A stretch of DNA of 41,374 nucleotides from an uncultured Candidatus Saccharibacteria bacterium (GCA_964360995.1 CAYHYZ010000005.1:1-41374), one strand, 5' to 3'. Shown: positions 6,015-41,374, numbered from the stretch's first letter. Numbers and translations are program-made. The notes: generated from the letters alone by a model not told the origin.

Positions 6015-6713
6015 CTAGTCCTGGCAGGTACCTGGAATTTCTGCTGTACTGTTTTCATCTGAAAATTGACAGGTGTTTCTGCATAGAATTCTCACGACAT
6101 TGTCCGATTGGGAATCGTTTGGAGACCCTGTGGTAAACGGTCCGCGTGAATATAACACACGATACGCGTTTCCTGCTTGCGTAGCATTTTCACAACCTTT
6201 TGTAGTGGTAACATCTCCATTTGGGAAGCACCGATAATCGGGATCAAACCAATACGGCCTTCCCCATGGATCAATAAGATTTGTTGTCAGGTATGGTCCT
6301 TTCCAATTATTGTATTCGCCATCGTTCACCACGATGCCCGCAAATCCATCGTGATTTCCATCATCAAACTCTCCAGTTACTGGAAACTCAACGCCATCAT
6401 TCCAGTTGTTGTAGATAGTTCGCGTTGGCTGAATTGCGGCGTTTTCGTTGTCATCCTCCCCACACTGTCCTGCGATATTTTTTCCAATACTCAAGCCGGC
6501 GTCCATCTCAAGATTAAACACGGCGATCGAAATATCGTATAAATCTGATTGTGCCTTAGCGTGTAGCGCACGAATGCGCGCTTCACTGAGCTGTGTGAAA
6601 ACAATGGAGGCAAGAAGCCCAATAATGGATATGACAACCAGCAGTTCAATTAACGTAAAAGCTTGGGTGTTTTTTAAGGTCACAACATTAGTCTTCCGCT
6701 GCATGTGTGTCAA
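6015..6713 (-). CDS. type IV pilin / pseudopilin with class III (prepilin) signal
   Basis: N-terminus ...KNTQA|FTLIELLVVISIIGLLASIVF is the canonical prepilin peptidase site plus hydrophobic helix. A variable globular C-terminal domain with Cys pairs follows. Confidence 0.88.
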   Translation of the reverse strand: MTHMQRKTNVVTLKNTQAFTLIELLVVISIIGLLASIVFTQLSEARIRALHAKAQSDLYDISIAVFNLEMDAGLSIGKNIAGQCGEDDNENAAIQPTRTIYNNWNDGVEFPVTGEFDDGNHDGFAGIVVNDGEYNNWKGPYLTTNLIDPWGRPYWFDPDYRCFPNGDVTTTKGCENATQAGNAYRVLYSRGPFTTGSPNDSQSDNVVRILCRNTCQFSDENSTAEIPGTCQD

Positions 6714-7741: not shown

Positions 7742-7751
7742 GCACTCCATT

Positions 7752-8036
7752 GCCGAGGTAGCTCAGTGGTAGAGCGCATGCCTAAATCTTTGGGCCACGG
7801 CGTAGTAATACGCAGTGCAAATCGGGTGAATTCGGGGAAAACTCAATATTTTGAACAACCCCGAGCCAAGCCAGGCACTTTCATAAAGTGCTCGGAAGGT
7901 GTAGAGACTATCCTGTAAAGGAGTACTCTCCGAACGGAGGGGAAGCGCCCGACACCCTACTCGCAAGAGGGGTGATGATATAGTCCGACTCTTTTGGAAG
8001 AGCATGGCGTCGCGAGTTCAATTCTCGCCCTCGGCA
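7752..8036 (+). tRNA. tRNA-Phe(GAA), split by a group I intron (exons 7752-7783 and 7997-8036)
   Basis: Joined exons give a 72-nt cloverleaf: GCCGAGG/CCTCGGC acceptor, GCTC-AGTGGTA-GAGC D arm, CATGC/GCATG anticodon stem, loop CU-GAA-GA, GCGAG-TTCAATT-CTCGC T arm, discriminator A. CCA is not encoded. Confidence 0.85.
7784..7996 (+). ncRNA. group I self-splicing intron (IC3-like), no internal ORF
   Basis: The 5' exon ends in U33, which can pair as GCCU/GGGC (P1, U.G at the splice site). The last intron base is G (omega-G, 7996). The core strings CCGAGCCAAGC and GAAGGUGUAGAGACUA...UAGUC (P7 pairing) match my recollection of the Azoarcus/cyanobacterial tRNA introns. Confidence 0.85.
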
Positions 8037-8230
8037 CACGACAACCCTATAATCCCGGTAAGCCGAGATTATAGGGTTTCGTTTGTGGCGAGGAGAGCGA
8101 GCAACCTGCATTGCTCGCGACGAGAGTTGAAGGCCGGAGTATCCCCGCGAAGCGGGGCGCGAGGCGGGGTCGCAACCGAGCGCGATCACAAGCGAGAGTT
8201 GTGACCAATTGAGCCCTCGACACACGATAA
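8037..8230 (+). other. GC-rich structured element ending in a decayed copy of the tRNA-Phe 3' end
   Basis: Contains a perfect 12-bp hairpin (8043-8054/8068-8079), an 8-bp hairpin gcgagcaa/ttgctcgc, CCCCGC-GAA-GCGGGG, and GGTCGCAAC/GTTGTGACC, which needs a G.U pair only on the plus strand. The end gccctcgacacacgataa (8212-8230) repeats gccctcggcacacgacaa (8026-8044) at 16/18. Confidence 0.5.
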
Positions 8231-22401: not shown

Positions 22402-23250
22402 ATGCATGATCTGAAATCAGACATCGAGCAAGCACGTCTGGTGGGTATTATTGTCCCCCCCTCACCAACTCATGAGGCGCTTCTTGCCGCATTTGCGGTC
22501 AAAAAAGCTGCCGGAGAAAAAGGATTTCTGCTTGGCAATCCCGGTGTCACCAATGATCACTGGAATATGCTATTTAACGAGAAACTCCCTCCTCGCGATT
22601 TTGCGCTTACCGTCAACACTGCAGACATTCCGATTGAAGAACTCCGATATGAGCGCAAGGGCGATGCACTCACGGTATATTTTACAAGCTACCGTGAACT
22701 CGACACGCAACATTTTACATTTGAAGAAGCGCTCCCCGAATGCGATCTCCTTATTACCGTTGGATTTCCAAACACCGAAACCGAGCAGGAAACACTGCAA
22801 CGCATGTATCAAAATAAAACATACAAACACATTTCGATCGCACGATCGGGAGCGGCAACTGCAAAAGCGGGGAATCTGAAACTACTGTCTCGTATGTTGT
22901 TCCGCTCACGAGAGGAATTGGAACTAAACACACTCTGGTCATTTATCTCGCCAGACGACTTTTTAAAGACAGAAGCGACCCCAACCGACGCGCTTGCACT
23001 CGTGCCGTCAATGGAATCACTTTCCGGTGGCCCTGAGTTTATTGTGGTGTTATGGCAGGAACTCGGGCGTGATGTCACTGGGCTTGTACATAGTAGAAAC
23101 GAGCACGCATTACAGCAAATTGCCGCAAACTTGGGCGTTGCGCGCAGTAGCACACATGTGATGCTCCCCTACATGGGATCGTTTACCGAGGCCGAGCGCA
23201 ACGTACGAAAATTGCTGCTCTCCATGGGACTCGGTACAATGAAGTCGTGA
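22402..23250 (+). CDS. hypothetical protein translationally coupled to pilB
   Basis: ORF 22180-23250 trimmed to ATG 22402 (MHDLKSDIEQARLVGIIV). TGGTATAAG extended -10 lies 6 nt upstream. Its stop overlaps the pilB GTG start (GTGA). There is a vague NrnA/DHH-like layout, but no DHH catalytic residues are visible. Confidence 0.55.
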   Translation: MHDLKSDIEQARLVGIIVPPSPTHEALLAAFAVKKAAGEKGFLLGNPGVTNDHWNMLFNEKLPPRDFALTVNTADIPIEELRYERKGDALTVYFTSYRELDTQHFTFEEALPECDLLITVGFPNTETEQETLQRMYQNKTYKHISIARSGAATAKAGNLKLLSRMLFRSREELELNTLWSFISPDDFLKTEATPTDALALVPSMESLSGGPEFIVVLWQELGRDVTGLVHSRNEHALQQIAANLGVARSSTHVMLPYMGSFTEAERNVRKLLLSMGLGTMKS

Positions 23251-24923
23251 CGAACTTTTCGAAGTCCGACGATACCGACGCAAGACTAAAACGTGCACAT
23301 CTCGAGGAAGCGGAGAAGCTTGCCTCTGTTATGGCGGAGCGCTTCGGACTTCCGTATATCAATTTTCGCGTACTTCCTATTGATCTTGATGCGCTCAAAC
23401 TTGTTTCTGAGTCTGAAGCACGTCGTACCGGTATTGCAATATTCGAACGCGTGTCGAGAAAATTGCGCATTGCCGTAAAAAATCCAGAACTCCCCGCAAC
23501 GCAAGAAATGATTCAATCGCTCACAAAACAGCGCTTTCTCTTTGATTTATATTTAGTGTCACTCCCGTCGCTTGAACATGCGTGGAATAGATACGCCGAA
23601 ATTGTTACGGGGAATGATGCGCCCCCCGGAATCGTTGATATTGCGGTAGATCGTCTAAAAACATTTCAAGAGAATGTAGGATCAATTACAGACCTTGGGG
23701 CACTCATCACCACGGCCGCAGAAAACAGTGAAAAGTTTCGCGCAACAGATTTACTGGAACTTATTCTCGCAGGATCTCTTGCACTTGATGCCTCCGACGT
23801 ACATTTGGAGCAAGAGGAAAAACATACAGTGCTTCGGTATCGTCTCGATGGCGTACTCCACCAAGCAACCACCATTTCGAACGAAATATATAAACTATTA
23901 CTTTCTCGTATTAAGCTTGTATCGGAATTAAAACTCAATATTCACGACCGCGCACAAGATGGGAGATTTACGATTCGCCAATCAACTGGCGACATTGAGG
24001 TGCGCGTCTCTTCACTCCCCGGCCCAAACGGAGAATCGCTCGTGATGCGCGTACTCAATCCAAAAACGATTGCGCTTTCTCTTGAGGATCTGGGAATGCA
24101 ACGCCCGGTATACGAGCTCATCATCAAGGAGCTCGAGCGCCCAAATGGCATGATTGTTACCACGGGTCCCACGGGTTCTGGAAAAACAACAACGCTCTAT
24201 GCGTTTATTAAAAAAGTGCAATCCCCCGATATTAAGATTATCACCATTGAAAACCCTATCGAGTATCATCTCTCTGGTATTACACAAACACAAATTGACG
24301 CCGCGGGACATTATACATTTGAGACTGGTCTTGCGGCCATTCTCCGACAAGATCCCGATGTTATTCTGATTGGAGAAATCCGAAGCTTAGAAACTGCACA
24401 AACCGCGCTACACGCCGCACTTACCGGGCACCTCGTATTTTCAACACTCCACACAAACAATGCTGCGGGCACCATCCCTCGTCTTATCGATATTGGAGTG
24501 AAGCCAAATATTATTGCGCCGGCAGTGAATCTCGCAATTGCGCAACGTTTAGTGCGTAAACTTTGCAGTCACTGTAAACAATCATTCGCCCCGAACGCAG
24601 AGGAGCGCGCACGCATTGAGACAGCGCTACAAAGTATTCCAAAGGTACACGCGAGCATTATCCCAAAAGAGATCCTGATATGGCGCGCGCCGGGATGTAA
24701 AGAATGTACAACTATTGGATATAAAGGACGAATCGGTGTCTACGAAGCACTTCGCATTGATGATACGGTCGAGCGACTCATGCTTGGCACCCCATCTGAA
24801 GCGGATTTTTTTGAAGCAGGGCGCGCGCAAGGGATGCTCACAATGTATCAAGACGCAATGTTAAAGGTGATTGCCGGTGCAACAAGCTTGGAAGAAGTGG
24901 TGCGCGTCGTGGGGAGTGAATAA
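23247..24923 (+). CDS. pilB: type IV pilus / type II secretion assembly ATPase (PilB/GspE family)
   Basis: N-terminal T2SSE_N-like LPYINF, Walker A GPTGSGKTTTLYA, Asp box, Walker B DPDVILIGEIR, His box TGHLVFSTLHTN, tetracysteine CSHC...CKEC. Confidence 0.93.
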   Translation: MTNFSKSDDTDARLKRAHLEEAEKLASVMAERFGLPYINFRVLPIDLDALKLVSESEARRTGIAIFERVSRKLRIAVKNPELPATQEMIQSLTKQRFLFDLYLVSLPSLEHAWNRYAEIVTGNDAPPGIVDIAVDRLKTFQENVGSITDLGALITTAAENSEKFRATDLLELILAGSLALDASDVHLEQEEKHTVLRYRLDGVLHQATTISNEIYKLLLSRIKLVSELKLNIHDRAQDGRFTIRQSTGDIEVRVSSLPGPNGESLVMRVLNPKTIALSLEDLGMQRPVYELIIKELERPNGMIVTTGPTGSGKTTTLYAFIKKVQSPDIKIITIENPIEYHLSGITQTQIDAAGHYTFETGLAAILRQDPDVILIGEIRSLETAQTALHAALTGHLVFSTLHTNNAAGTIPRLIDIGVKPNIIAPAVNLAIAQRLVRKLCSHCKQSFAPNAEERARIETALQSIPKVHASIIPKEILIWRAPGCKECTTIGYKGRIGVYEALRIDDTVERLMLGTPSEADFFEAGRAQGMLTMYQDAMLKVIAGATSLEEVVRVVGSE

Positions 24924-30761: not shown

Positions 30762-31020
30762 CTCCTCCGGTGCGGCGCCGTATCTCTTGATCGATGTGTG
30801 TTTTTTGTTTTGTGAGTATGTGCCGCTCCCCTCCTGATAGTCCCCGTATTACCACGCAACCTTTCTGTAGTGTAATCACCCGAGACTCCATAGAAATGGA
30901 AATTTTTTTTTCTTGAAAGATATTTGTCAGTGCTTGGGAAATAAATACTGGATCAGACCCTTGTACGCGCGCAAGGGTGCTTTTATATTTTCTAAAATAC
31001 ATCTCAAACGACTGAAACAT
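30736..31020 (-). CDS. DUF721/DciA-like small protein downstream of dnaN
   Basis: 94 aa. Its ATG overlaps the dnaN stop (TAATG). The pattern VITLQKGCVVIRGLSGGERHILTKQKTHIDQEIRRRTGGVIVEV fits the DUF721 beta-alpha layout. Assignment is by position and pattern. Confidence 0.45.
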   Translation of the reverse strand: MFQSFEMYFRKYKSTLARVQGSDPVFISQALTNIFQEKKISISMESRVITLQKGCVVIRGLSGGERHILTKQKTHIDQEIRRRTGGVIVEVRLG

Positions 31021-32132
31021 TATTCTCGAATACCACGCATTGGCATAATAAGGTGTCGGTGTGTTCCGGTGCTATTTTTCATAAGCACCGCGTCTTTTCC
31101 TTTATTTGCCCCAATAAACACCTCCTGCTCAGTGAATGTTTGTAGAGCATCAGAAAGATATTTCCAATTCAATGTAATGTTCACCCCTTCACCAGTAATA
31201 TGCGCTGGGAGCACCGCGTGGTATTGGCCCACCTCCTGACTCTCTGATGTGAGAGTGATTCCTTCTCCAACTTTTAGTGATAAATACACATCATGTAGTT
31301 TTCCGGAAAATAGTTTTGCTTGTTTAATATGTTGAAATAATTTTTGCCTATCCACCACACACTCCGTGGTAAATTGTTTTGGGATTATCTCCTCATACGC
31401 GGGGAATGTCCCATCGATGAGTCGGGAATAAATTGTGGTATCTTTTGATCGTATAATCACGCCTTGTGGTGAGAAATGGAGATCAATCATTTCATCTGTG
31501 GTGTCTCTAAAAATTCTTACACACTCCTCTACCACCCCAACAGGGATCATAAATTGCTGTGTGCGCTCTGTGGTAGTGAATTCCCCTGGAGCAATACGCA
31601 CCTCTGAAAGGCGAAAACTGTCGGTAGATACACATGTTAAATCTTGTCGCACACGAAACAATACCGATCCCAACTCCTGTCGAATATTAAATGGGGAGGC
31701 AGATACAATCACACGGCCCATTGCATCAATAAATAATGATCGGTGCACGGAAATCACCGCTACATCTCGTTGTACAGGAAATGGTGGAAATTCGTCTGCT
31801 GATAGTGCTTGAAATTTTGTTTGTTGATTATTCACATCAATTGAGAGTTGGTGCGCACTCACACCAATAATCAACATCTCTGCATTTTCAATGTTTAGCA
31901 AAAAAGATGAAAATACTTTCGCTGGGATTGCCACTGATCCATTCTTTCCACTTGGACAGGAAAATTTTGTCTCTACACCAATTTCAAGATTTGTTGCCGC
32001 AACTGTTACTATCCCACCACTATAAGTTACTAAAATAGAATTTAAAATTGGGACTGCTGGATTTTTCCCAACAATACGCTCAACAGAGCTTACAGATTTT
32101 TTCAGAAGTTCGGCGGGGCATTCGAATTGCAT
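31020..32132 (-). CDS. dnaN: DNA polymerase III beta sliding clamp
   Basis: 370 aa, MQFECPAELLKKSVSSVERIVGKNPAVPILNSILV..., with three-domain length and position directly downstream of dnaA. Confidence 0.93.
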   Translation of the reverse strand: MQFECPAELLKKSVSSVERIVGKNPAVPILNSILVTYSGGIVTVAATNLEIGVETKFSCPSGKNGSVAIPAKVFSSFLLNIENAEMLIIGVSAHQLSIDVNNQQTKFQALSADEFPPFPVQRDVAVISVHRSLFIDAMGRVIVSASPFNIRQELGSVLFRVRQDLTCVSTDSFRLSEVRIAPGEFTTTERTQQFMIPVGVVEECVRIFRDTTDEMIDLHFSPQGVIIRSKDTTIYSRLIDGTFPAYEEIIPKQFTTECVVDRQKLFQHIKQAKLFSGKLHDVYLSLKVGEGITLTSESQEVGQYHAVLPAHITGEGVNITLNWKYLSDALQTFTEQEVFIGANKGKDAVLMKNSTGTHRHLIMPMRGIRE

Positions 32133-32317: not shown

Positions 32318-33694
32318 CTAAGAAGTTTTATACAGTTTCTCCCGGATGAGTCGTATTTCTTCCACAAGTTTTCCATTCTTTTTTAAGTCAGTGGTGATCT
32401 TATCATGCGCATGTAATGCGGTAGTGTGGTCTCTTCCACCAAGCTTTTGTCCGATATACGGATATGATCCATGAAAATCTTCACGTAATAAATACATTGC
32501 GATTTGGCGTGGTTTTACCACTTCCCTCTTTCTACTTCGCGCAAATAAATCCTTTTCTTCAATACCAAAAAATTCAGCCACAGTCTTGAGAATTTGAGAG
32601 GTGGTCACTACCCGCTGGGCTTGCATATTTAATTGCTCCAGAGTCTGTTTTGCTTCATCTATTGTGAGAGGTTGAGAGCGGATGCGTGTTTTTGCAATGA
32701 GTATATTTAACGCTCCCTCTAATTCACGAATGTTTTGTTGAATTAACGAAGCGATAAATTCCAATACTTCATCTGGTGGTACGTAATGCTTCTCAATTGC
32801 CTTTGCTTTTAAGATTGCAAGTCGAGACTCATACTCTGGTTGCCCAATATCTACAATAAGCCCCGCCTCAAAACGAGAACGGAGGCGCGCCTCAAGATTT
32901 GGGATGATTTGTGGGGGCTTATCTGATGAAAATACAATTTGTTTCCCAGACTCATAGAGTACATTAAATGTATGAAAAAACTCCTCCTCCGTTTTATTTT
33001 TTCCTGCAATAAATTGAATATCATCAATAATAAGGAGGTCAACCGCGCGATATTTTTCTTTAAAAGCTCCGAGTGGTTCACGATTTTGAATGAGCGTGAT
33101 GAGCTCATTCATGAATTTTTCAGAGGTGAGATATAAAATTCGGTAATTCGGATGTATTTTCTTTACCTCATTTCCAATTGCTTGGAGGAGATGGGTTTTT
33201 CCAAGTCCTACCCCACCATACACAAAGAAAGGGTTGTAGAGAGTTCCCATGCTCTTCGTGATAGAGAGGGCTGCGGCGTGCGCCAATTCATTAAACGAGC
33301 CAACGATAAAACTATCGAAAGTATATTTGGGATTTAAATTTGTTTCCCGATCGACCGAAAACTCCTTAAATTCCAACTGTTCGTGCCGCTCCTCGATTGG
33401 TTGGTCGATTTTTTTCTGTAAACGCTGATTGTGTAGTAGCGAGCTAATAGTGTAGTGCACTGCACGCACCGCATCTGTTTGATCTCGGAGCGCCTTGACA
33501 ATTGATCGATGATATTTTCTTTCTAACCACTCTTTAGCGAATGCATTGGGTACTGCGATGAGCGCGGTGCCGTCTTGGATGCCTTGTAAAGTGGTGTTTT
33601 GAAACCACGTTGCGAAATTTGCTTTAGATGTTTCTAATTCCATCTGAGTCAGAACTTTCTGCCACAGTTCTTGATGATTGATGGGTTGCTGCAT
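32318..33694 (-). CDS. dnaA: chromosomal replication initiator DnaA
   Basis: Walker A GGVGLGKTHLLQAIG, Walker B LLIIDDIQF, and the domain IV DNA-binding helix-turn-helix VKPRQIAMYLLRE...GGRDHTTALHA. Confidence 0.97.
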   Translation of the reverse strand: MQQPINHQELWQKVLTQMELETSKANFATWFQNTTLQGIQDGTALIAVPNAFAKEWLERKYHRSIVKALRDQTDAVRAVHYTISSLLHNQRLQKKIDQPIEERHEQLEFKEFSVDRETNLNPKYTFDSFIVGSFNELAHAAALSITKSMGTLYNPFFVYGGVGLGKTHLLQAIGNEVKKIHPNYRILYLTSEKFMNELITLIQNREPLGAFKEKYRAVDLLIIDDIQFIAGKNKTEEEFFHTFNVLYESGKQIVFSSDKPPQIIPNLEARLRSRFEAGLIVDIGQPEYESRLAILKAKAIEKHYVPPDEVLEFIASLIQQNIRELEGALNILIAKTRIRSQPLTIDEAKQTLEQLNMQAQRVVTTSQILKTVAEFFGIEEKDLFARSRKREVVKPRQIAMYLLREDFHGSYPYIGQKLGGRDHTTALHAHDKITTDLKKNGKLVEEIRLIREKLYKTS

Positions 33695-33827: not shown

Positions 33828-33962
33828 ATGTCAGTCACCTACCAACCAAAAAAACGAAAACGAAGTCGTTCTCACGGCTTTTTAAAGCGCAGTCGGACCA
33901 CGAGCGGTATTAATGTGATCAAGCGCCGCAGACAGAAAGGACGAAAACGCCTTACCGTTTAA
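33828..33962 (+). CDS. rpmH: 50S ribosomal protein L34
   Basis: Translated by hand: [44 protein letters not shown]. This matches the bL34 consensus (TxQPxxxKRxRxHGF...RRRxKGRxxLT). Below the ORF-track length cut-off. Confidence 0.92.
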
Positions 33963-33972
33963 CAACTATTGA

Positions 33973-34311
33973 ATGCTGCCGCGTACGCAGCGACTTCGGA
34001 GAACTGAAGACATTCAAAGAGCCATGACATCCGGGGTGCGGAGTCACGGTAATTTTCTTATAGGCCACATCTTAAGGACAACGCGCCCCGATGCGCGATT
34101 TTGTGTGGTCGTGTCTGCGCAAATTTCAAAACGTGCGGTGGTGAGAAATAAAAATCGCAGAAGAATTTCTGAAGCACTGCGAACAAAAATTGTTCCAAAT
34201 GTTCAATCAGGGTATGATGTCGTTATTCGACTCAAAAAGGATGCTAGCGACATTTCCCACCCAGAACTTCTCGCTGACCTACGGCGCTGTCTTGTAAAAA
34301 TCATTCCATGA
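33973..34311 (+). CDS. rnpA: ribonuclease P protein component
   Basis: LPRTQRLRRTEDI..., RNR-like motif KRAVVRNKNRRRISEAL. Conserved rpmH-rnpA-yidC order. Confidence 0.9.
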   Translation: MLPRTQRLRRTEDIQRAMTSGVRSHGNFLIGHILRTTRPDARFCVVVSAQISKRAVVRNKNRRRISEALRTKIVPNVQSGYDVVIRLKKDASDISHPELLADLRRCLVKIIP

Positions 34312-35096
34312 AATATCTCTATTCCACGATCGTCTATCAACCCCTTCTCAACGCCATCATCGCGCTCACTACTATTGTCCCCGGGCATAGCCTAGGATGG
34401 GCGGTCATCATTATGACTATATGTGTGCGGATGGTACTTTTTCCACTACAGCACCGTGCAACCAAGGTGCAGGAAGTGTTAAAGCATTTAGAACCCCATC
34501 TGAGTGAGTTAAAGGAGAAACACAAGGATGATAGAGAGGAGCTTGCGCGAAAAACACTTGAGCTCTATCGAAAGCATGGCATTAATCCATTCGCGTCACT
34601 TTTGCTGTTTGTGGTACAACTCCCTATTCTTATTGCGCTATTTAAAATTTTTCAACACGGACTCATTGGTGATATTTCAGGACAACTCTATAGTTTTGTG
34701 CCTCATCCGGAGGTGCTGAATATGATATTTTTTGGTATTGATCTTTCCCGTCCATTTATTCCGCTCGCGATTATTGCGGCAGTGACACAATTTGTGCAGG
34801 TGAAGCTTATGCTCACCAAACAGAAGAAAAAAGAGGGGGCAACCCCACAAACTGGATTTGGCGCAGAGTTTCAACGTGCGATGCAAGTACAAATGCCATA
34901 TATTATTCCATTGATGGTTGGTTTTATTGGCGCAAAATTTGCCGCAGCACTCCCACTGTATTGGACAGTGATGAATGTGCTTGCTATAGTGCACGAAGGA
35001 ATCGTGCGTAAACGCGCAGCCTCCATGAGTTATGAACCAGGAAGCGAACAACACATCACTCACAGCGGCGGCGCGGCACCTCGCAATGCTGCTTAA
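34308..35096 (+). CDS. yidC: membrane protein insertase YidC (short Oxa1-like form)
   Basis: ATGA overlap with rnpA. Conserved Arg-containing TM1 (VRMVLFPLQHR), coiled-coil hairpin KEKHKDDREELARKTLELYRKHGINPF, five TM helices. Confidence 0.9.
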   Translation: MKYLYSTIVYQPLLNAIIALTTIVPGHSLGWAVIIMTICVRMVLFPLQHRATKVQEVLKHLEPHLSELKEKHKDDREELARKTLELYRKHGINPFASLLLFVVQLPILIALFKIFQHGLIGDISGQLYSFVPHPEVLNMIFFGIDLSRPFIPLAIIAAVTQFVQVKLMLTKQKKKEGATPQTGFGAEFQRAMQVQMPYIIPLMVGFIGAKFAAALPLYWTVMNVLAIVHEGIVRKRAASMSYEPGSEQHITHSGGAAPRNAA

Positions 35097-35502
35097 ATTA
35101 ATGGGCATTGCCGGAACTATTGAAGAAGGAGTAGTCGGAGACACTTTGACCATTACTATTCGCACCCCAGAACCGGGTGTGCTTATTGGTGAAGATGGCG
35201 CGCGCTTGCAGGCATTAAATCACGTCATTCGCCGCATGATCGAGCACGAATTGGGGCATGAGCGATCACAGATTCTGGTAGATGTGAATGATTACCGCCG
35301 GAAGCAATTTGAAGAGCTTCGCGATCAAGCGCGCATGGGAGCGCAGCGAGTGCGATATTTTAAAAAAGAAGTGACGCTCTCACCCATGACTGCGTTTGAG
35401 CGGCGCATCGTACACGTTGCGCTACAAGAGTATCCCGATATTACCACCGAGTCACACGGGGAAGGACCAACGAGATGTGTGGTGATTCGCCCCTACCCGT
35501 AA
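35086..35502 (+). CDS. jag: Jag/KhpB-family RNA-binding protein (KH + R3H)
   Basis: R3H block MTAFERRIVHVALQEYPDITTESHGEGPTRCVVIRP, with the KH-like GVLIGEDGARLQALNHVIR. Start set at ATG 35086; the longest ORF starts at 35032. Confidence 0.85.
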   Translation: MLLKLMGIAGTIEEGVVGDTLTITIRTPEPGVLIGEDGARLQALNHVIRRMIEHELGHERSQILVDVNDYRRKQFEELRDQARMGAQRVRYFKKEVTLSPMTAFERRIVHVALQEYPDITTESHGEGPTRCVVIRPYP

Positions 35503-35510
35503 GGTGCGCA

Positions 35511-36674
35511 CTATTTTTGTAGTACAAGACTCCACAACGAGGAGTCGTTTTTATTTACAAATAGGAGCGCGCTGTCATCTGGAGCGACGGCGAGTTCAAT
35601 TGCGTCATAATTTCCTTCGGAGACGATGCGTACTTCCCCCGTGCGGAAGTTCCAGCGCGTTATTCGATCCTCAAAGTGGTGTTCACCACGTAGCCACGCG
35701 TCATAGATTTGTTTTGTGATTGATGACGGAACGCCGCAATATATAATTGATGTGTCCGTGCGTGCCCAGACGCATTTTTCAGGGTACGTTGTAAATGGCG
35801 CGATAGTGATGCGGTCTTTTGTAGAGGTTGCCTTCGTGTCTAATAGGTAGAGCGTAGGCATGTCGGAGATAGTCTCTGCCGCACTGTAGAGCACATATCT
35901 CCCCGATGAGTGTTCGAGTATTGAAAGTTGATACGATGCGGGTGTAAGGGGGGTATATGAGCCACCTGAGAGCACCCACGCAAGACTTTCTACAAATGCT
36001 GATCCAGGATTTCGCACTATGGGGCGCGCCACAACATCCCATGATAAGAGTAGTTGCGACTGTGGGTGCGAAGCGAGTGTCGTTGGCTTAGTGCCATTAG
36101 GGAGGGCGGTCGCGATCACCGATCCATCGTCAGTTTGTTTTGCAAACGCGACTCGGAGCCCATCAGGAGAGACTGCAGCGAATGCCGTGGTTTCCGGGAG
36201 CCTTGTTACCTGTGAGCTCGATGAAGTAAAAGAAATATGTGCGAAGTCTGGAGTATTATTTTGTGTAGAAAATGTGACGAGCGCAGCAGAGCCGTTGTTC
36301 GCCCAATCAACAACATATGCATTATCTAGGCGTGTATCTGAAAGCGCGATCGCTACCCCTCCCGTGAGCGGTCTTTCATATACAAGACCGCTCGCGCGTT
36401 CAATGTATCTCACGGTATTACTATTTGGCGCGAACATCCCACTAATGACATTTTTAGCTATCTCCCGGGATGCCTCTTCTCCTTCTGTGATAATTGTTCC
36501 TTCAGGCGTAAGGTCGGTTCCGGGAGTTTCTTGGCGTGGGTCACTATTTGGCAATTCCCCGCCGATCAACTCACCACCACTACGCTGATTGAGATACCAC
36601 ACAAGCGCAATAATACCTATAAGTAATAGGACAAATGCGATCACGACATACAGTTTTTTTCGAGAAGAATCCAT
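35511..36674 (-). CDS. membrane-anchored PD40/TolB-like beta-propeller protein (last gene of the T4SS-like operon)
   Basis: N-terminal TM anchor LYVVIAFVLLLIGIIALVWYL. PD40-type repeats (AVSPDGLRVAFAKQTDDGS, VAPDDSALLFVNKNDSSLW). Confidence 0.6.
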   Translation of the reverse strand: MDSSRKKLYVVIAFVLLLIGIIALVWYLNQRSGGELIGGELPNSDPRQETPGTDLTPEGTIITEGEEASREIAKNVISGMFAPNSNTVRYIERASGLVYERPLTGGVAIALSDTRLDNAYVVDWANNGSAALVTFSTQNNTPDFAHISFTSSSSQVTRLPETTAFAAVSPDGLRVAFAKQTDDGSVIATALPNGTKPTTLASHPQSQLLLSWDVVARPIVRNPGSAFVESLAWVLSGGSYTPLTPASYQLSILEHSSGRYVLYSAAETISDMPTLYLLDTKATSTKDRITIAPFTTYPEKCVWARTDTSIIYCGVPSSITKQIYDAWLRGEHHFEDRITRWNFRTGEVRIVSEGNYDAIELAVAPDDSALLFVNKNDSSLWSLVLQK

Positions 36675-36683
36675 AGATATTTA

Positions 36684-37142
36684 TTATGGTGTTTGACCAG
36701 CCCCGCCATCGTTAGTTCCAGAAGATCCAGTCCCTGGGGTCTTTATAGGATCAATTTTTAAATTTAATTTTAAGAATGAATTTCCACCAAGTGTGGTTAA
36801 AATCAGCACCGCGCCAATAATGATCAGAAATCCATACGCAACCCTTGTCATACGACTCTTCGCGGCCCCAGCGGCGCTTTGATTTCCTCCAGCAGTAATG
36901 TACTGCACGCCGCTGTATACGAGCATCACAAGTCCAAATCCCAGCGCTGCTGATAGTAATGACACATATGCAATTGTGAGATATTGCTCGAGGCTACTAA
37001 TTTCCCTCGAGGTTGACCCAGGAAGTGGCTCCGCAAGCTGATATGGAGAGGGGAAGGTTTGTGCGTTTACAAAAGATGAAAGTAATACCATTGAGCAGGC
37101 GGTGGCGAGAATGAGTAGTGGCGCGAGGCGGAGGTGTTTCAT
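36684..37142 (-). CDS. VirB2/TrbC-type T4SS pilin-like protein
   Basis: Signal peptide (LLILATACSMVLLSSFVNA), then two TM helices joined by the loop YSGVQYITAGGNQSAAGAAKSRMTRVAYGF. This is the pattern of the T4SS_pilin family common in CPR and Gram-positive loci. Gly/Thr-rich tail. Confidence 0.65.
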   Translation of the reverse strand: MKHLRLAPLLILATACSMVLLSSFVNAQTFPSPYQLAEPLPGSTSREISSLEQYLTIAYVSLLSAALGFGLVMLVYSGVQYITAGGNQSAAGAAKSRMTRVAYGFLIIIGAVLILTTLGGNSFLKLNLKIDPIKTPGTGSSGTNDGGAGQTP

Positions 37143-37144
37143 AT

Positions 37145-38149
37145 TTATTCTACTATCAATTTTAATTGCGAGCTTGCGCGCTCAAACACATTGTGTGTAT
37201 TTAAGAAAGACGCAGTAATGTTATAGAAAGTTGGGGTTGTAGGCATGCTGAGTTGTATTGTATTTCCCGCCCCCCCGGTATTTGGGATCGCTTTGCCGCT
37301 ACTATCCCACGAATATTCAAGAACGCTTTCAGTGCTAACATTATATGGAATCGCAATGAGACCAATTTTTTCCCCAGCACGCATTGAAAGGGATGAGATA
37401 ACCGATTTTCGTGCAATAGAGTGTGATTGATTGCTGTAGACGGTAATACGAGATTTTTCTGACCCCACATTAATGCTACTCTGGGCGGAATATGTGCCTC
37501 GTGGGTCGCTAATTGAAACTTGCACGCGCACAGTTTCCGCAGGAGATTTTGGCAATCTAAATACATATGTGCTCGCGCCAATTCCTGAAAGCGCCACCGC
37601 GTCAGATCCATCAACTTTCCATGTATATAATAGACGTTTCGGGCTACTGTTTTGATATGTTCCGGTGAGCGTTGGGAATGCAGTAATGCGAACCACCCCT
37701 CGTGGAGCCGGCAACTTTCGTCCCATATACCAAAAAGGTGCCGTTGTATCAGCTTCCAGAATGATATGTATCTCCGACGGCCTAATCGTTGTTGTCCCTT
37801 CGATGACAACTACTCCAGCCATTTTTCCAACAACGCGAATTCGTGTAGAAGATCCAACTCCCCCAAGGGTAACCGTTGCAGTGCGCTTCCCATAGCCCGA
37901 AGTAATCATTTTGTCATTTGCATACCATGTAATATCCATAGCATTGAGATCAGCGCTATAGGATTTTGCTTGAAGAGAAACCTCCGTATTAGCAGCCGGC
38001 TGATCCGGCGTTGTAATTATTTGTATCTGTCCCACTAGTAGACCAGTAGGATTAGTAAATTGTGCGTAAGTAAGGCGCGCCCCAAATATCACCGTTGCGC
38101 AAAGAAAAACAATAATGAGCAAACGTAAGTTATTATTGATTATTTGCAT
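37145..38149 (-). CDS. secreted protein with three tandem ~95-aa beta-sandwich-like repeats
   Basis: ORF trimmed to ATG 38149 (MQIINNNLRLLIIVFLCATVIFGARLTYA signal). Repeat anchors DITWYANDK, LYTWKVDGS and LEYSWDSSGK occur at regular spacing. Confidence 0.6.
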   Translation of the reverse strand: MQIINNNLRLLIIVFLCATVIFGARLTYAQFTNPTGLLVGQIQIITTPDQPAANTEVSLQAKSYSADLNAMDITWYANDKMITSGYGKRTATVTLGGVGSSTRIRVVGKMAGVVVIEGTTTIRPSEIHIILEADTTAPFWYMGRKLPAPRGVVRITAFPTLTGTYQNSSPKRLLYTWKVDGSDAVALSGIGASTYVFRLPKSPAETVRVQVSISDPRGTYSAQSSINVGSEKSRITVYSNQSHSIARKSVISSLSMRAGEKIGLIAIPYNVSTESVLEYSWDSSGKAIPNTGGAGNTIQLSMPTTPTFYNITASFLNTHNVFERASSQLKLIVE

Positions 38150-39935
38150 ATTCTGCTTTAGCTTGTTTGACCGCAAGAATTTCAGAGGGATCCGAAGTGA
38201 TAATCTGATGTTCAGTATACGAGGAAATGATACGAATGGCGACATGCTTGAGTCCCGCAAAGAAAATTCCCGTCCCGACTTCCGCGCCAAGGAGTAAATA
38301 GCGCTCTTCATCCGTGAGATGAAATGTTTCTTTTACCAGGTCAATGGTACTTGGAGATTGCTTGAGGAGTAATTGTACAGATGAGTTTGTGACAATTGCC
38401 CTTCCATATGAAGATCCCATAAAGTCTGCCACATCTTGCGTGATGGTCATAAGCCCTAAATAATATTTTCGTGCACGCTTCGCAATACCAAAAAGAAATG
38501 AAGCGCCGTCCTCGTTTTTCATCATCCACCACGCCTCGTCCACCACGAGGATACGCTTTTTGAGCTCCTGTCGGATTGCATTCCAGATGTGTTGCACAAT
38601 CAAATACATAGCCACCGGGCGGAGATCATCTTGCATGTCGCGTACCGAAAACACCGTAAGTTTTTTTGTGATGTCTACGTTTGTGTGTTGGTTTAAAAAC
38701 CCCGCCCAACTTCCCGTAGTATATTTTCTCATCCGCATCGCAAGCGACTCCCCTCCCTCCATGTTAGAAAGTACAAGTTCAAGATCGGTCAGAAGCGGAG
38801 GAGTGCGCCCGGTAAAGTCACTTTCTTCAGTAATATCTTTTGTAGCGTAGGTTTCGGTGATTGCGCGGTCGAGCACCGCATCTTCTTCTGGCGTCAACCC
38901 ACCAAGCATAATACGAAACAATCCCACCAACCCTATCACATGGGAGCGCAGCACATCAGAGAGCGACTCGTCTTCACGAGGTGTCGGGAGATCAAACGGA
39001 TTAATATGATGTTTGGATGTGAGAGAAATATTAAATGCCCTCCCCCCAACTGATTCAGCGAGAAATTCATATTCTCGTTCTGGGTCGATAATAATAACCT
39101 CGGTACCCAGCATGAGTGAGCGAATAATTTCTAATTTCGCGGTGTATGACTTTCCTGCGCCGGAGGTCGCAAGAATCACAGAATTATAATTCTCCATACT
39201 ATAGCGATCAAAAATGACCAGTGATGCGTTGCTTCTATTTATTCCGTACAAAATACCTCGGTCGGACGTGAGTTCAAGCGAAGAGAATGGAAACACGCTC
39301 GAAATAGGAGCGGTATTCATATTATATGTGACGCCAAGTAGGTCGGTGCCCATAGGAAATGTTGAATGAAGACCCTCCTTTTGTCTGAACATTGCTGGGC
39401 GCGTTTCAATGAGTTTAGAGCTGAGAATTGAGCGCACCTCATGCTCCGCTTTATTTAATTGTTCCTGTGTATCGGCATATACAGTAATATATAGCCCAAA
39501 TGCAAAATACTTTTCCGTTGCTTGCTGAAGACGATCGCGAAGGGATTCGATGTCACGATATGCGGTATCCAACATTGGATCGCGCACCATACCCTTCTCC
39601 TCATTTTCTCGGATTTGTGAAAGTACGCGCGCCGATTGTTTTTGGAGATCGGAGAGCACCTTTGCGGTATCCGCAGGATGAATAAATACTGAAATATCAA
39701 AAACCTTATCAAGTCCTATAACGTCTCCAAACCAATTTGGCGCGAGTGTGCGTGGGTAGGAAAGCACAAAAATAGTTCGGGTAAACACATTACCAAGTTG
39801 TATGTGAGTTGAAGCAATTGAAAACGCGCTTGGGGCAATAATATCACGCATCTCAACTAACCCCTCGCGGTAGATGTCGTCGGGGCGTACCGGAGCGATG
39901 CCGCTTTGTTTTGGCCGTGTGTTAAATAGCGCCAT
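38133..39935 (-). CDS. virB4: VirB4/TrbE/PrgJ-family T4SS ATPase (middle and ATPase domains)
   Basis: Walker A ILATSGAGKSYTAK, Walker B RILVVDEAWWMM, IFVLSYPRTLAPNWF membrane-proximal block, DUF87/AAA_10-like C-terminal half. Confidence 0.85.
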   Translation of the reverse strand: MALFNTRPKQSGIAPVRPDDIYREGLVEMRDIIAPSAFSIASTHIQLGNVFTRTIFVLSYPRTLAPNWFGDVIGLDKVFDISVFIHPADTAKVLSDLQKQSARVLSQIRENEEKGMVRDPMLDTAYRDIESLRDRLQQATEKYFAFGLYITVYADTQEQLNKAEHEVRSILSSKLIETRPAMFRQKEGLHSTFPMGTDLLGVTYNMNTAPISSVFPFSSLELTSDRGILYGINRSNASLVIFDRYSMENYNSVILATSGAGKSYTAKLEIIRSLMLGTEVIIIDPEREYEFLAESVGGRAFNISLTSKHHINPFDLPTPREDESLSDVLRSHVIGLVGLFRIMLGGLTPEEDAVLDRAITETYATKDITEESDFTGRTPPLLTDLELVLSNMEGGESLAMRMRKYTTGSWAGFLNQHTNVDITKKLTVFSVRDMQDDLRPVAMYLIVQHIWNAIRQELKKRILVVDEAWWMMKNEDGASFLFGIAKRARKYYLGLMTITQDVADFMGSSYGRAIVTNSSVQLLLKQSPSTIDLVKETFHLTDEERYLLLGAEVGTGIFFAGLKHVAIRIISSYTEHQIITSDPSEILAVKQAKAEYANNQ

Positions 39936-39936
39936 A

Positions 39937-40578
39937 TTATTTAGTTTCTACTCCAATAGGGCCGGCAAGATCTGGATTATATAGCTGTCGAAAAAGTTCT
40001 ATCAGTTCCGGAGTGCCCAGCACTGCCGTGCGAATACCAATACCGGCAAGTCCTTGCTCTACCACTGCAACGCGCTGCATCAACTGCGTTTTCCATTCTT
40101 CAAATTTCTGTGTTATGTCAGCATGTGTTTGTTGTTTGCCAGTGACCATTCTTGCGATTCCTGTGATAAACGACGCTTCTTTTGTAGCTTCCGCGGGCTG
40201 ATAGGGCACTACCGTATAAAATGTTTTAGTGACGATACTATTTGAAGTAACTAGAGATTTCATGAACGCGATGTATTCGTTGGTTTGAATTTTTAGTAAG
40301 TCGTTTGGCTCATCGTTCGCGCGCGCGCGGAGATCATCAAGATATCCATCGATATTTAATCTGCGAGAGGACACAAAAAACTGGACTGGGAAATCCAGCG
40401 TATTAATAAATCGTTGGTACGAAATAATAATTGACTCCTGCTCGTCAGTAGACTTGAGATCAAAATTAATTGAGGTACAGAGCAGTATTGCGCGGATGCC
40501 CTTGTTCTTTATAATGAGGACATTATCTCGGACCTCCTCAATCTCTAGAATTTTTTGTGTTGCTGGGGTACTTGCCAT
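39937..40578 (-). CDS. VirB4 N-terminal-domain-like protein (separate ORF)
   Basis: LEIEEVRDNVLIIKNKGIRAILLCTSINFDLKSTDEQESIIISYQRFINTLDFPVQFFV matches the pattern of the first ~200 aa of VirB4/TraC proteins. Its stop lies 1 nt before the ATG of the ATPase ORF, in a different frame. Confidence 0.55.
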   Translation of the reverse strand: MASTPATQKILEIEEVRDNVLIIKNKGIRAILLCTSINFDLKSTDEQESIIISYQRFINTLDFPVQFFVSSRRLNIDGYLDDLRARANDEPNDLLKIQTNEYIAFMKSLVTSNSIVTKTFYTVVPYQPAEATKEASFITGIARMVTGKQQTHADITQKFEEWKTQLMQRVAVVEQGLAGIGIRTAVLGTPELIELFRQLYNPDLAGPIGVETK

Positions 40579-40579
40579 G

Positions 40580-40999
40580 TTATCGCTGTTCGTGAATATT
40601 GAGTTTCCAAGTGAGTTCTTTCAATTTATCCGCAGTGAGTTTTTGTTCCACAACGGGAGCTGGCGCAGCAGCCGCAGCCACATGTTTTGCTTGCTCAACG
40701 TCGCGAGCCGATTCTTTTGGTGTGGCCCACAAGTATAATTGAGGGCTGAAATAATATCGAAGAAACCCAAGTACGCGGTGATGAAATGGTCTTCCCTCCG
40801 CTTTCATGAAGGCAAGGATCCAGGCAAAACCCACAATGGCAATAGCGAATATTCCAAAAATAAATGTAGGAAATCGGAATTGTTTGATGATAAAAATCAG
40901 ACCTCCTGCAGCGAGAAAAATTCCAAATTGACGAAATGATAACTTCCATATCACCTTATCCTCAACGTCGACAAATTGTGGTACTTGAAATTGCAGCAT
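40580..40999 (-). CDS. PrgI/VirB3-like small membrane protein
   Basis: MLQFQVPQFVDVEDKVIWKLSFRQFGIFLAAGGLIFII... is the characteristic PrgI-family N-terminus plus two TM helices. Sits immediately upstream of VirB4, as in Gram-positive T4SS. Confidence 0.6.
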   Translation of the reverse strand: MLQFQVPQFVDVEDKVIWKLSFRQFGIFLAAGGLIFIIKQFRFPTFIFGIFAIAIVGFAWILAFMKAEGRPFHHRVLGFLRYYFSPQLYLWATPKESARDVEQAKHVAAAAAPAPVVEQKLTADKLKELTWKLNIHEQR

Positions 41000-41000
41000 A

Positions 41001-41374
41001 TTAGCTTACTGGTTCTCGATACGGGTCTTTTCCAGTGTAGAGTTGTTCGGTTTGTTTCTGGGGTTCGAGTCCGGCTTTTGCGGGGTACACCACCGCAGTG
41101 GACGCGCTTCCCGGTGGCGGTATTTTTGCGGGAGACGACGTTATCTGCTCGCCTCTGTTTGTGGCGGAGGGGATCGAGACTTTTGGCGTGGTGGGCAGTG
41201 ATGCTGGGGTAGGGGGTATCGCGGGCGGCGTCTTCATTTTTTCCTCTGTGTGAGCGGGCGTTGTACTTTTTTCGGTGAGTGGTGCCGTGTCTGGTTTTTT
41301 TTGTTTTTCAGAGGTGGTTATTGGAGTGGGGGCGGACTCCTGCGAGCTTTTTCGCACAATCGTAATTCTTGAAG
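41001..41374 (-). CDS. Pro/Thr/Lys-rich C-terminal tail of a protein whose 5' end lies beyond the window
   Basis: The frame stays open through base 41374 upstream of the GTG at 41357. Low-complexity sequence (TPPAIPPTPASLPTTPK). The stop lies 1 nt before the PrgI-like ATG. Confidence 0.5.
   Translation of the reverse strand, partial: SRITIVRKSSQESAPTPITTSEKQKKPDTAPLTEKSTTPAHTEEKMKTPPAIPPTPASLPTTPKVSIPSATNRGEQITSSPAKIPPPGSASTAVVYPAKAGLEPQKQTEQLYTGKDPYREPVS

Follow-up and report, generated by a model that had tools for sequence, protein, structure and literature searches.

A chromosomal Patescibacteria-clade type IV secretion locus beside the dnaA block of an uncultured bacterium and its conserved, predominantly unannotated partner proteins

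What is a tightly packed set of type IV secretion system (T4SS) genes doing beside the dnaA block of a bacterial chromosome, with no conjugation genes in view? The question is raised by a stretch of 41,374 nucleotides (GCA_964360995.1, CAYHYZ010000005.1:1-41374), deposited as an uncultured Candidatus Saccharibacteria bacterium, the whole of which we call the window. A preliminary description of this DNA had proposed a minimal T4SS-derived machine, chromosomal rather than mobile, in an organism of Parcubacteria/Paceibacteria type. We consider it highly probable that the region is the distal part of a Patescibacteria-clade T4SS, in other words a chromosomal machine, passed on vertically, that derives from monoderm conjugation machinery of mating-pair formation class FATA (MPF-FATA) and CD1110 type and has lost its DNA-processing module. 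To judge from the closest relative (L001, whose VirB4 is 93% identical) and about 60 syntenic loci, from which the full extent of the operon was inferred, the window would hold the downstream two-thirds of an operon wedged between pcrA-ksgA and jag-yidC-rnpA-rpmH-dnaA.

Seven co-directional open reading frames (ORFs) on the minus strand fill the window from position 35511 to its end at 41374. In the direction of transcription these are the 3' end of a P/T-rich protein gene ("g483", 41001..41374), which runs off the window; a gene for a small PrgI/VirB3-like membrane protein of 139 aa (40580..40999); one for a soluble protein of 213 aa that resembles TrsD and represents a free-standing VirB4 N-terminal domain (39937..40578); the gene for a VirB4 ATPase of 600 aa that lacks this domain (38133..39935); one for a secreted protein of 334 aa with a predicted signal peptide and three immunoglobulin/fibronectin type III (Ig/FN3)-like repeats, hereafter the 3xIg protein (37145..38149); the gene for a VirB2-type T4SS pilin of 152 aa (36684..37142); and finally that of a predicted extracytoplasmic beta-propeller of 387 aa, of TolB/PD40 type and anchored by a transmembrane (TM) helix (35511..36674). 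The first three junctions (41001/40999, 40580/40578 and 39937/39935) are gaps of 1 nt, the third of which reads TAA-T-ATG; the 3' end of virB4 overlaps the start of the 3xIg gene by 17 nt (38133/38149), and gaps of 2 nt (37145/37142) and 9 nt (36684/36674) follow. Every coordinate given for the seven ORFs and their six junctions in the preliminary description was reproduced by our ORF list, and the 3xIg start at 38149 is backed by a database gene call (P0001) and by homologues.

The 600-aa VirB4 protein matches the NF045971 model (conju_CD1110) with 361.9 bits against a cut-off of 325, over model positions 176-732, and also matches the Pfam families P-loop_TraG, AAA_10, DUF87 and CagE_TrbE_VirB. 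Walker A (SGAGKS, residue 258) and Walker B (VVDEAW, residue 464) are both present. The preceding 213-aa ORF covers positions 17-151 of the NCBIfam CD1110 VirB4 model, 104-233 of VirB4_plasma and 21-182 of TrsD. Among 45 members of its family, all 45 match the N-terminus of CD1110 VirB4, 43 match VirB4_plasma and 36 match TrsD. Judged by this profile coverage, the two predicted products jointly are one full-length VirB4. The split can also be taken as damage, in which case the locus would be a decaying, non-functional T4SS remnant whose VirB4 was broken by a frameshift and whose canonical parts have gone missing. It is true that the N-domain and the ATPase lie in different frames on either side of TAA-T-ATG, and that no VirB8, VirB1 or type IV coupling protein (T4CP) is recognisable in the operon. 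However, the N-domain is an ORF of its own with its own start codon in 74 loci, so the two-ORF form is the ancestral arrangement and no frameshift; moreover, that ORF corresponds to a known protein family, TrsD. Both Walker motifs are intact in 79 of 79 homologues, few proteins of the locus are as well conserved as VirB4 (93% identity to L001, against 96% for DnaA), and the same split occurs in a cluster from Bacillota described below. We therefore regard decay as exceedingly improbable.

Two more components of a T4SS accompany the VirB4 pair. The 139-aa protein passes the Pfam PrgI model (PF12666) narrowly, with 27.9 bits against a cut-off of 27 (E = 3.6e-6); a TM scan places two helices at residues 20-38 and 46-64, and in 71 loci a member of the family immediately precedes the VirB4 pair. 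The 152-aa protein matches T4SS_pilin (PF18895; E = 1.6e-6, 28.5 bits, cut-off 26.6) and shows, in the same scan, a signal peptide and two hydrophobic helices, while its tail is rich in Gly, Ser and Thr; the position of its gene between those of the 3xIg protein and the propeller is conserved. The VirB4, PrgI and pilin assignments of the preliminary description are thus borne out by profile hidden Markov model (HMM) searches above the cut-offs, and its VirB4 N-domain ORF by the CD1110 and TrsD matches.

We then compared the locus with its relatives, defined as the 80 best loci from a scan of a genome collection. All are metagenome-assembled or single-amplified genomes of Patescibacteria, and those named specifically include Giovannoni-, Ryan-, Nomura-, Wolfe-, Kaiser-, Sungiibacteria and similar groups. 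Iterated HMMs, run on every ORF of these loci, defined the gene families. The modal order comprises nine genes (Cys-containing protein, VirB6-like protein, P-rich protein, PrgI, TrsD, VirB4, 3xIg, pilin and propeller); it is complete in 28 loci, and most of the truncated contigs agree with it. Such an order, kept in about 60 independent genomes that are all patescibacterial, is far beyond chance. In about 40 loci the operon is preceded by pcrA-ksgA and followed by jag-yidC-rnpA-dnaA-dnaN-PBP1. VirB4 of the window is 57-93% identical to its homologues in the 80 loci, whereas the best match among more than 5,000 plasmid VirB4s reaches 37.5%, with Bacillota and Actinomycetota proteins of CD1110 type at the top. 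By this identity-based proxy, VirB4 falls within the Patescibacteria clade, and the earlier assignment of the host to a Parcubacteria/Paceibacteria-type organism is supported.

The relatives also show where the operon begins. Upstream of PrgI, L001 carries genes for a P-rich protein of 483 aa, a protein of 749 aa, a secreted Cys-containing protein of 467 aa and a lineage-specific protein of 274 aa, and then ksgA and pcrA. The 749-aa protein, encoded two genes upstream of PrgI, has about eight TM segments and, after them, a long hydrophilic tail; Pfam TrbL/VirB6 is matched by 11 of 41 members of its family (best E = 8.6e-8), and the family profile weakly matches TrwI, the VirB6 of R388 (E = 0.04). 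On the strength of topology and matches we take it for an "extended VirB6". The window ends inside the operon, so its seemingly minimal, VirB6-less composition is an artefact of the window edge, and this part of the preliminary description has to be given up. The P/T-rich tail at the edge, by contrast, was correctly seen as the end of an upstream protein: it is 40% identical to the C-terminus of the 483-aa protein of L001 and ends in the same motif (...GKDPYREPVS), of which DPYREP is kept in 49 homologues. The P-rich family, 137-483 aa in total length, has a conserved domain of about 110 aa at the N-terminus, then a lengthy and highly variable linker rich in Pro, Thr and Ser, and the conserved DPYREP at the C-terminus (L001:7478-8926). 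The TM scan found neither a TM segment nor a signal peptide in it, Pfam scans gave nothing consistent, and no family or structure match was obtained. Similarly, the profile of the Cys-rich family had no significant match among PDB sequences.

The continuation beyond the window edge also bears on whether this is an ordinary integrative and conjugative element (ICE), or the remnant of one, with its relaxase, coupling protein and integrase just out of sight. The window does stop inside the operon, and the VirB4 family CD1110 is named for ICE and plasmid conjugation. Profile searches, however, found no relaxase, T4CP or integrase among the proteins of the 41-kb window, and none occurs in the 10 kb upstream of the L001 operon, where four co-oriented unannotated genes are followed by ksgA and pcrA. 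In dozens of distinct genomes the locus lies between the same housekeeping genes, so that the insertion site does not vary as that of an ICE would. A search for att-like direct repeats flanking the operon returned short imperfect chance repeats only, base composition is unremarkable, and the VirB4 relatives in the 80 loci are confined to Patescibacteria. In addition, Quinonero-Coronel et al. (2025, Microb Genom; PMC12102498) report that, of about 3,000 genomes, just 103 have relaxases, rarely near virB4. An ICE is therefore very improbable, and the reading as a pseudogene with a frameshifted VirB4 was rejected on the same grounds of synteny and conservation. The constant flanks and the missing mobility genes and repeats point instead to a vertically inherited core chromosomal locus; the preliminary description, too, had set the machine apart from mobile elements.

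Two proteins of the operon are not standard parts of a T4SS. In the 3xIg protein, three segments of about 100 aa are mutually homologous (hhalign probabilities of 98%, 95% and 97%), each with an invariant Trp (W75, W177 and W281). Its AlphaFold2 (AF2) model is all-beta, with a mean predicted local distance difference test (pLDDT) score of 61.6 and confidence confined to domain 1; the top Foldseek match is to the three Ig-like domains of the phage protein Hoc, which the family profile also finds (E = 5e-4). The predicted fold of the repeats is thus the Ig/FN3-like beta-sandwich, in line with the secreted triple-repeat beta-sandwich protein described before. The family is large, with 1,962 clusters at 50% identity (E <= 1e-10), nearly all of them of 315-350 aa. 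The propeller protein has a single N-terminal TM helix (residues 8-26) and invariant cysteines at positions 301 and 313. Its family profile matches TolB in the PDB (E about 1e-12), and its AF2 model (pLDDT 68, predicted TM score 0.67) resembles seven-bladed WD40-type propellers in Foldseek (E = 2e-10, TM-score about 0.65). Profile and predicted fold together place it among the TolB/PD40 beta-propellers. The TM-anchored propeller of the preliminary description is confirmed in this way; the PD40 label stands at the level of the family, as 8 of 58 members match Pfam PD40, but the window protein on its own does not. The two AF2 models rest on alignments of four and six sequences and are of modest confidence.

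How far the parts have diverged differs markedly from one to the next. Median pairwise identity is 65% for VirB4, 46% for TrsD, 37% for PrgI, 27% for the pilin and 24% for both 3xIg and propeller. Between the window and L001, the propeller, pilin and 3xIg proteins are 67%, 64% and 51% identical, and RnpA is 55% identical. These values suggest that conservation is strongest among the cytoplasmic parts and weakest among the exported ones. In the main text and available supplements of PMC12102498 none of the terms propeller, TolB, PD40 and Ig-like is used, so the 3xIg, propeller, Cys-rich and P-rich partners are apparently uncharacterised. Given a gene order strictly kept in about 60 genomes, predicted export, rapid divergence and this lack of mention in published analyses, we tentatively propose, as a reading nearly as probable as its opposite, that the 3xIg, propeller, Cys-containing and P-rich proteins form an undescribed extracytoplasmic module specific to the Paceibacteria-type T4SS. 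Such a module would replace the missing functions of VirB8, VirB5, VirB1 or an adhesin, build or anchor a pilus-like tube across a monoderm wall and set host specificity. The evidence from these sequences extends as far as co-inheritance.

Some variation around the conserved core was also recorded. A small polytopic membrane gene (100-330 aa), the product of which could be PrgF-like, lies between virB4 and the 3xIg gene in 53 relatives (e.g., L040:11772-12209) and is absent from the window and L001. The pilins of the same two loci carry TLGG (residues 117-120), just after the second hydrophobic helix, in place of a TINP motif that is nearly invariant among homologues (37-38 of 41); the TLGG lineage is thus also the one without the small membrane gene. 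Pilin copy number varies as well. In five loci (L050, L052 and L058-L060) a second pilin paralogue follows the propeller gene, with 73-87% identity across some 150 aa of core sequence. In another (L028:13342-17262), the pilin-propeller pair is present in tandem duplicate, its two copies separated by a 3xIg fragment of 62 aa. These copies are 100% and 99.7% identical and so reflect a recent duplication or an assembly artefact; an interpretation as diversifying paralogues was rejected as the pair is uninformative in this respect.

As a system, the locus is already known, and the novelty implied by the preliminary description does not hold: the machine, its composition, the missing conjugation genes and the position beside dnaA have been published (PMC10633639, PMC12102498, PMC12857230). 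Among 3,035 Patescibacteria genomes, PMC12102498 described a monophyletic VirB4 clade nested in MPF-FATA. In that survey TrsD, remotely homologous to the VirB4 N-terminus, was the most abundant associated component; PrgI/VirB3, VirB6 and VirB2-like pilins lay near virB4, relaxases were nearly absent and T4CP homologues were mostly distant from virB4. Clusters of Paceibacteria and Microgenomatia were found near dnaA, dnaN, rnpA, ksgA and rpmH. A 2025 FEMS review (PMC12857230) already counts these systems as a new subgroup of T4SSs. The window locus agrees in its VirB4 of MPF-FATA ancestry, separate TrsD, PrgI/VirB3 and VirB2-like pilin beside virB4, in the lack of a relaxase or nearby T4CP and in its chromosomal place next to the dnaA block, and to judge from L001 a VirB6-like gene would lie upstream; we see no essential difference. 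Minor ones are that Ca. Southlakia epibionticum (SEML1_0006-0019) has an array of six pilins whereas the window has a single pilin gene, and that, unlike in published Patescibacteria systems, no peptidase or lysozyme gene lies downstream of the window virB4.

Compared with the MPF-FATA systems proper (Trs of pGO1 with TrsD, CTn2 with CD1110, Prg of pCF10), the locus shares the CD1110-type VirB4, the TrsD-like protein, the PrgI-like VirB3, the absence of an outer-membrane core complex and, to judge from L001, probably a VirB6-like polytopic protein. In contrast to these conjugative machines, it has no relaxase, T4CP, oriT or PrgB-type adhesin and is not on a mobile element; it does have a VirB2-type pilin, the 3xIg protein and the propeller, and its VirB4 is just 30-37% identical to theirs. 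A further parallel was found on the megaplasmid of Pontibacillus sp. ALD_SL1 (L081, NZ_CP062975.1 348304-366109, with the cluster at about 351.8-361.4 kb). This cluster has the same pilin-VirB6-PrgI-TrsD-VirB4 core, consisting of a pilin-like protein of the Mbov_0395 family, a 779-aa VirB6-like protein, PrgI-like and TrsD-like proteins and a CD1110 VirB4. Its families align with the patescibacterial ones at hhalign probabilities of 99.8% (TrsD), 97.5% (pilin), 95% (PrgI) and 93.5% (VirB6), and its VirB4 is the second-ranked plasmid match (35% identity over 97% of the query). No annotated relaxase lies within 8 kb of it. It differs in its host (Bacillota), its megaplasmid location and its surroundings of chemotaxis and flagellar genes; in addition, virB4 is followed by a large peptidoglycan endopeptidase gene instead of 3xIg, pilin and propeller, and the pilin gene precedes virB4 instead of following it. 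Among monoderm systems, a split VirB4 with a VirB2-like pilin is therefore not unique to Patescibacteria.

The remainder of the window is chromosomal background. The jag-yidC-rnpA-rpmH-dnaA block, named in the preliminary description as the neighbour of the operon, was confirmed gene by gene. On the plus strand, jag (35032-35502) converges on the propeller gene at a distance of 8 nt and is preceded by yidC (34308-35096), rnpA (33973-34311) and rpmH (33828-33962), and on the minus strand lie dnaA (32318-33694) and dnaN (31020-32132). All of these are outside the machine. Within the window, G+C is lowest (0.382) at 32-33 kb and the cumulative GC skew has its minimum at 31-32 kb, consistent with an origin close to dnaA. 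A search with the DnaA-box consensus of E. coli showed no enrichment (12 found, 9.6 expected), so origin proximity rests on dnaA-dnaN synteny and the weak skew minimum. The remaining 35 kb encode housekeeping functions such as TsaD, LeuRS, UvrB, PolA, RuvABC, a two-component pair and a PilB-like ATPase. The latter, a T2SSE ATPase with an MshEN domain (23247-24923, plus strand), and a protein whose N-terminus bears a methylation (pseudopilin) motif (6015-6713, minus strand) both lie apart from the T4SS operon. Finally, at 7751-8040 (plus strand), a tRNA gene is interrupted in its anticodon-loop region by an intron of group I, which matches Rfam RF00028 with 69 bits and has its core at 7774-8004. 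ARAGORN overlooks this gene in the intact sequence; when the intron flanks GCCGAGGTAGCTCAGTGGTAGAGCGCATG... and ...GGCGTCGCGAGTTCAATTCTCGCCCTCGGCA are joined in silico, the product folds as a tRNA, the anticodon of which depends on the exact splice site.

How might such a machine work? By analogy with characterised T4SSs, PrgI/VirB3, TrsD with VirB4, and VirB6 would form a membrane translocon, in which ATP hydrolysis by VirB4 would pull the VirB2-type pilin from the membrane and polymerise it to a tube on the cell surface. Outside the membrane, the fast-evolving 3xIg and propeller proteins would serve as a wall-spanning scaffold or as parts that contact the host. The tube would touch the host cell and move macromolecules, either importing host nucleic acid or other macromolecules or exporting effectors. 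Several points weigh against this picture of a complete patescibacterial machine. The mechanism is borrowed from other T4SSs, and the growth data come from Ca. Southlakia epibionticum, which belongs to another lineage. The VirB6-like gene would lie outside the window in this genome, its presence being read from L001. Family profiles of PrgI, the pilin and the TrsD-like protein gave no significant match among PDB sequences. The roles suggested for 3xIg and propeller derive only from the conserved place of their genes, the predicted export and the class of fold, with models at pLDDT 62 and 68, and RnpA is also poorly conserved (55% to L001), so exported parts are not alone in diverging fast. Lastly, a VirD4-type T4CP may be encoded elsewhere in the genome, since T4CP homologues lie far from virB4 in many genomes (PMC12102498).

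Within the picture of a Patescibacteria-clade T4SS, a narrower proposal is that it is a dedicated importer of nucleic acids, akin to ComB or Ced, which would bring host DNA or RNA to a cell unable to make nucleotides. The locus can be compared with H. pylori ComB, archaeal Ced, Bordetella Ptl and Brucella VirB, which are likewise chromosomal, relaxase-free and repurposed from conjugation, and of which ComB and Ced import DNA; these differ in having diderm or archaeal architectures and other subunit sets, the similarity is that of generic P-loops, and we do not count the locus among them. As in ComB, relaxase and T4CP are not nearby. Import of DNA or other macromolecules was proposed in PMC12102498, and a cultured member of Microgenomatia has been reported to be joined to its host by tubular structures and to take up RNA of the host (bioRxiv 10.64898/2026.06.21.733656). 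The P-loop region of the ATPase matches the NCBIfam models CedB (E = 6.4e-13) and CedD weakly, but these scores are far below the cut-offs (48 against 700 bits for CedB) and concern the shared P-loop region only. Besides, the link between T4SS and uptake has so far the standing of a proposal, Wang et al. (2023, Cell; PMC10633639) lean towards the export of proteins or some "alternative capacity", and family scans of the window and L001 found no nuclease, DNA-binding or ComEC-like genes in the operon. Overall, we judge a dedicated importer to be possible and somewhat unlikely.

A T4SS is one of the few machines kept by nearly all members of the candidate phyla radiation (Patescibacteria) in their genomes of about 0.5-1 Mb. 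What is gained here is one more locus of Paceibacteria type, with a defined operon of nine to ten genes in which five conserved partner genes have no annotation. The residual interest is modest and lies in these unannotated, conserved partner proteins. The Pontibacillus core bears on the origin of the pilin, which may have come down with the monoderm system or been recruited from diderm ones. For the biology of the group, the system is of wider importance: in Ca. Southlakia epibionticum, the one genetically tractable species, transposon sequencing showed the homologous cluster, including its pilins, to be essential for epibiotic growth (PMC10633639), and the T4SS is the leading candidate for how these episymbionts may tap their hosts.

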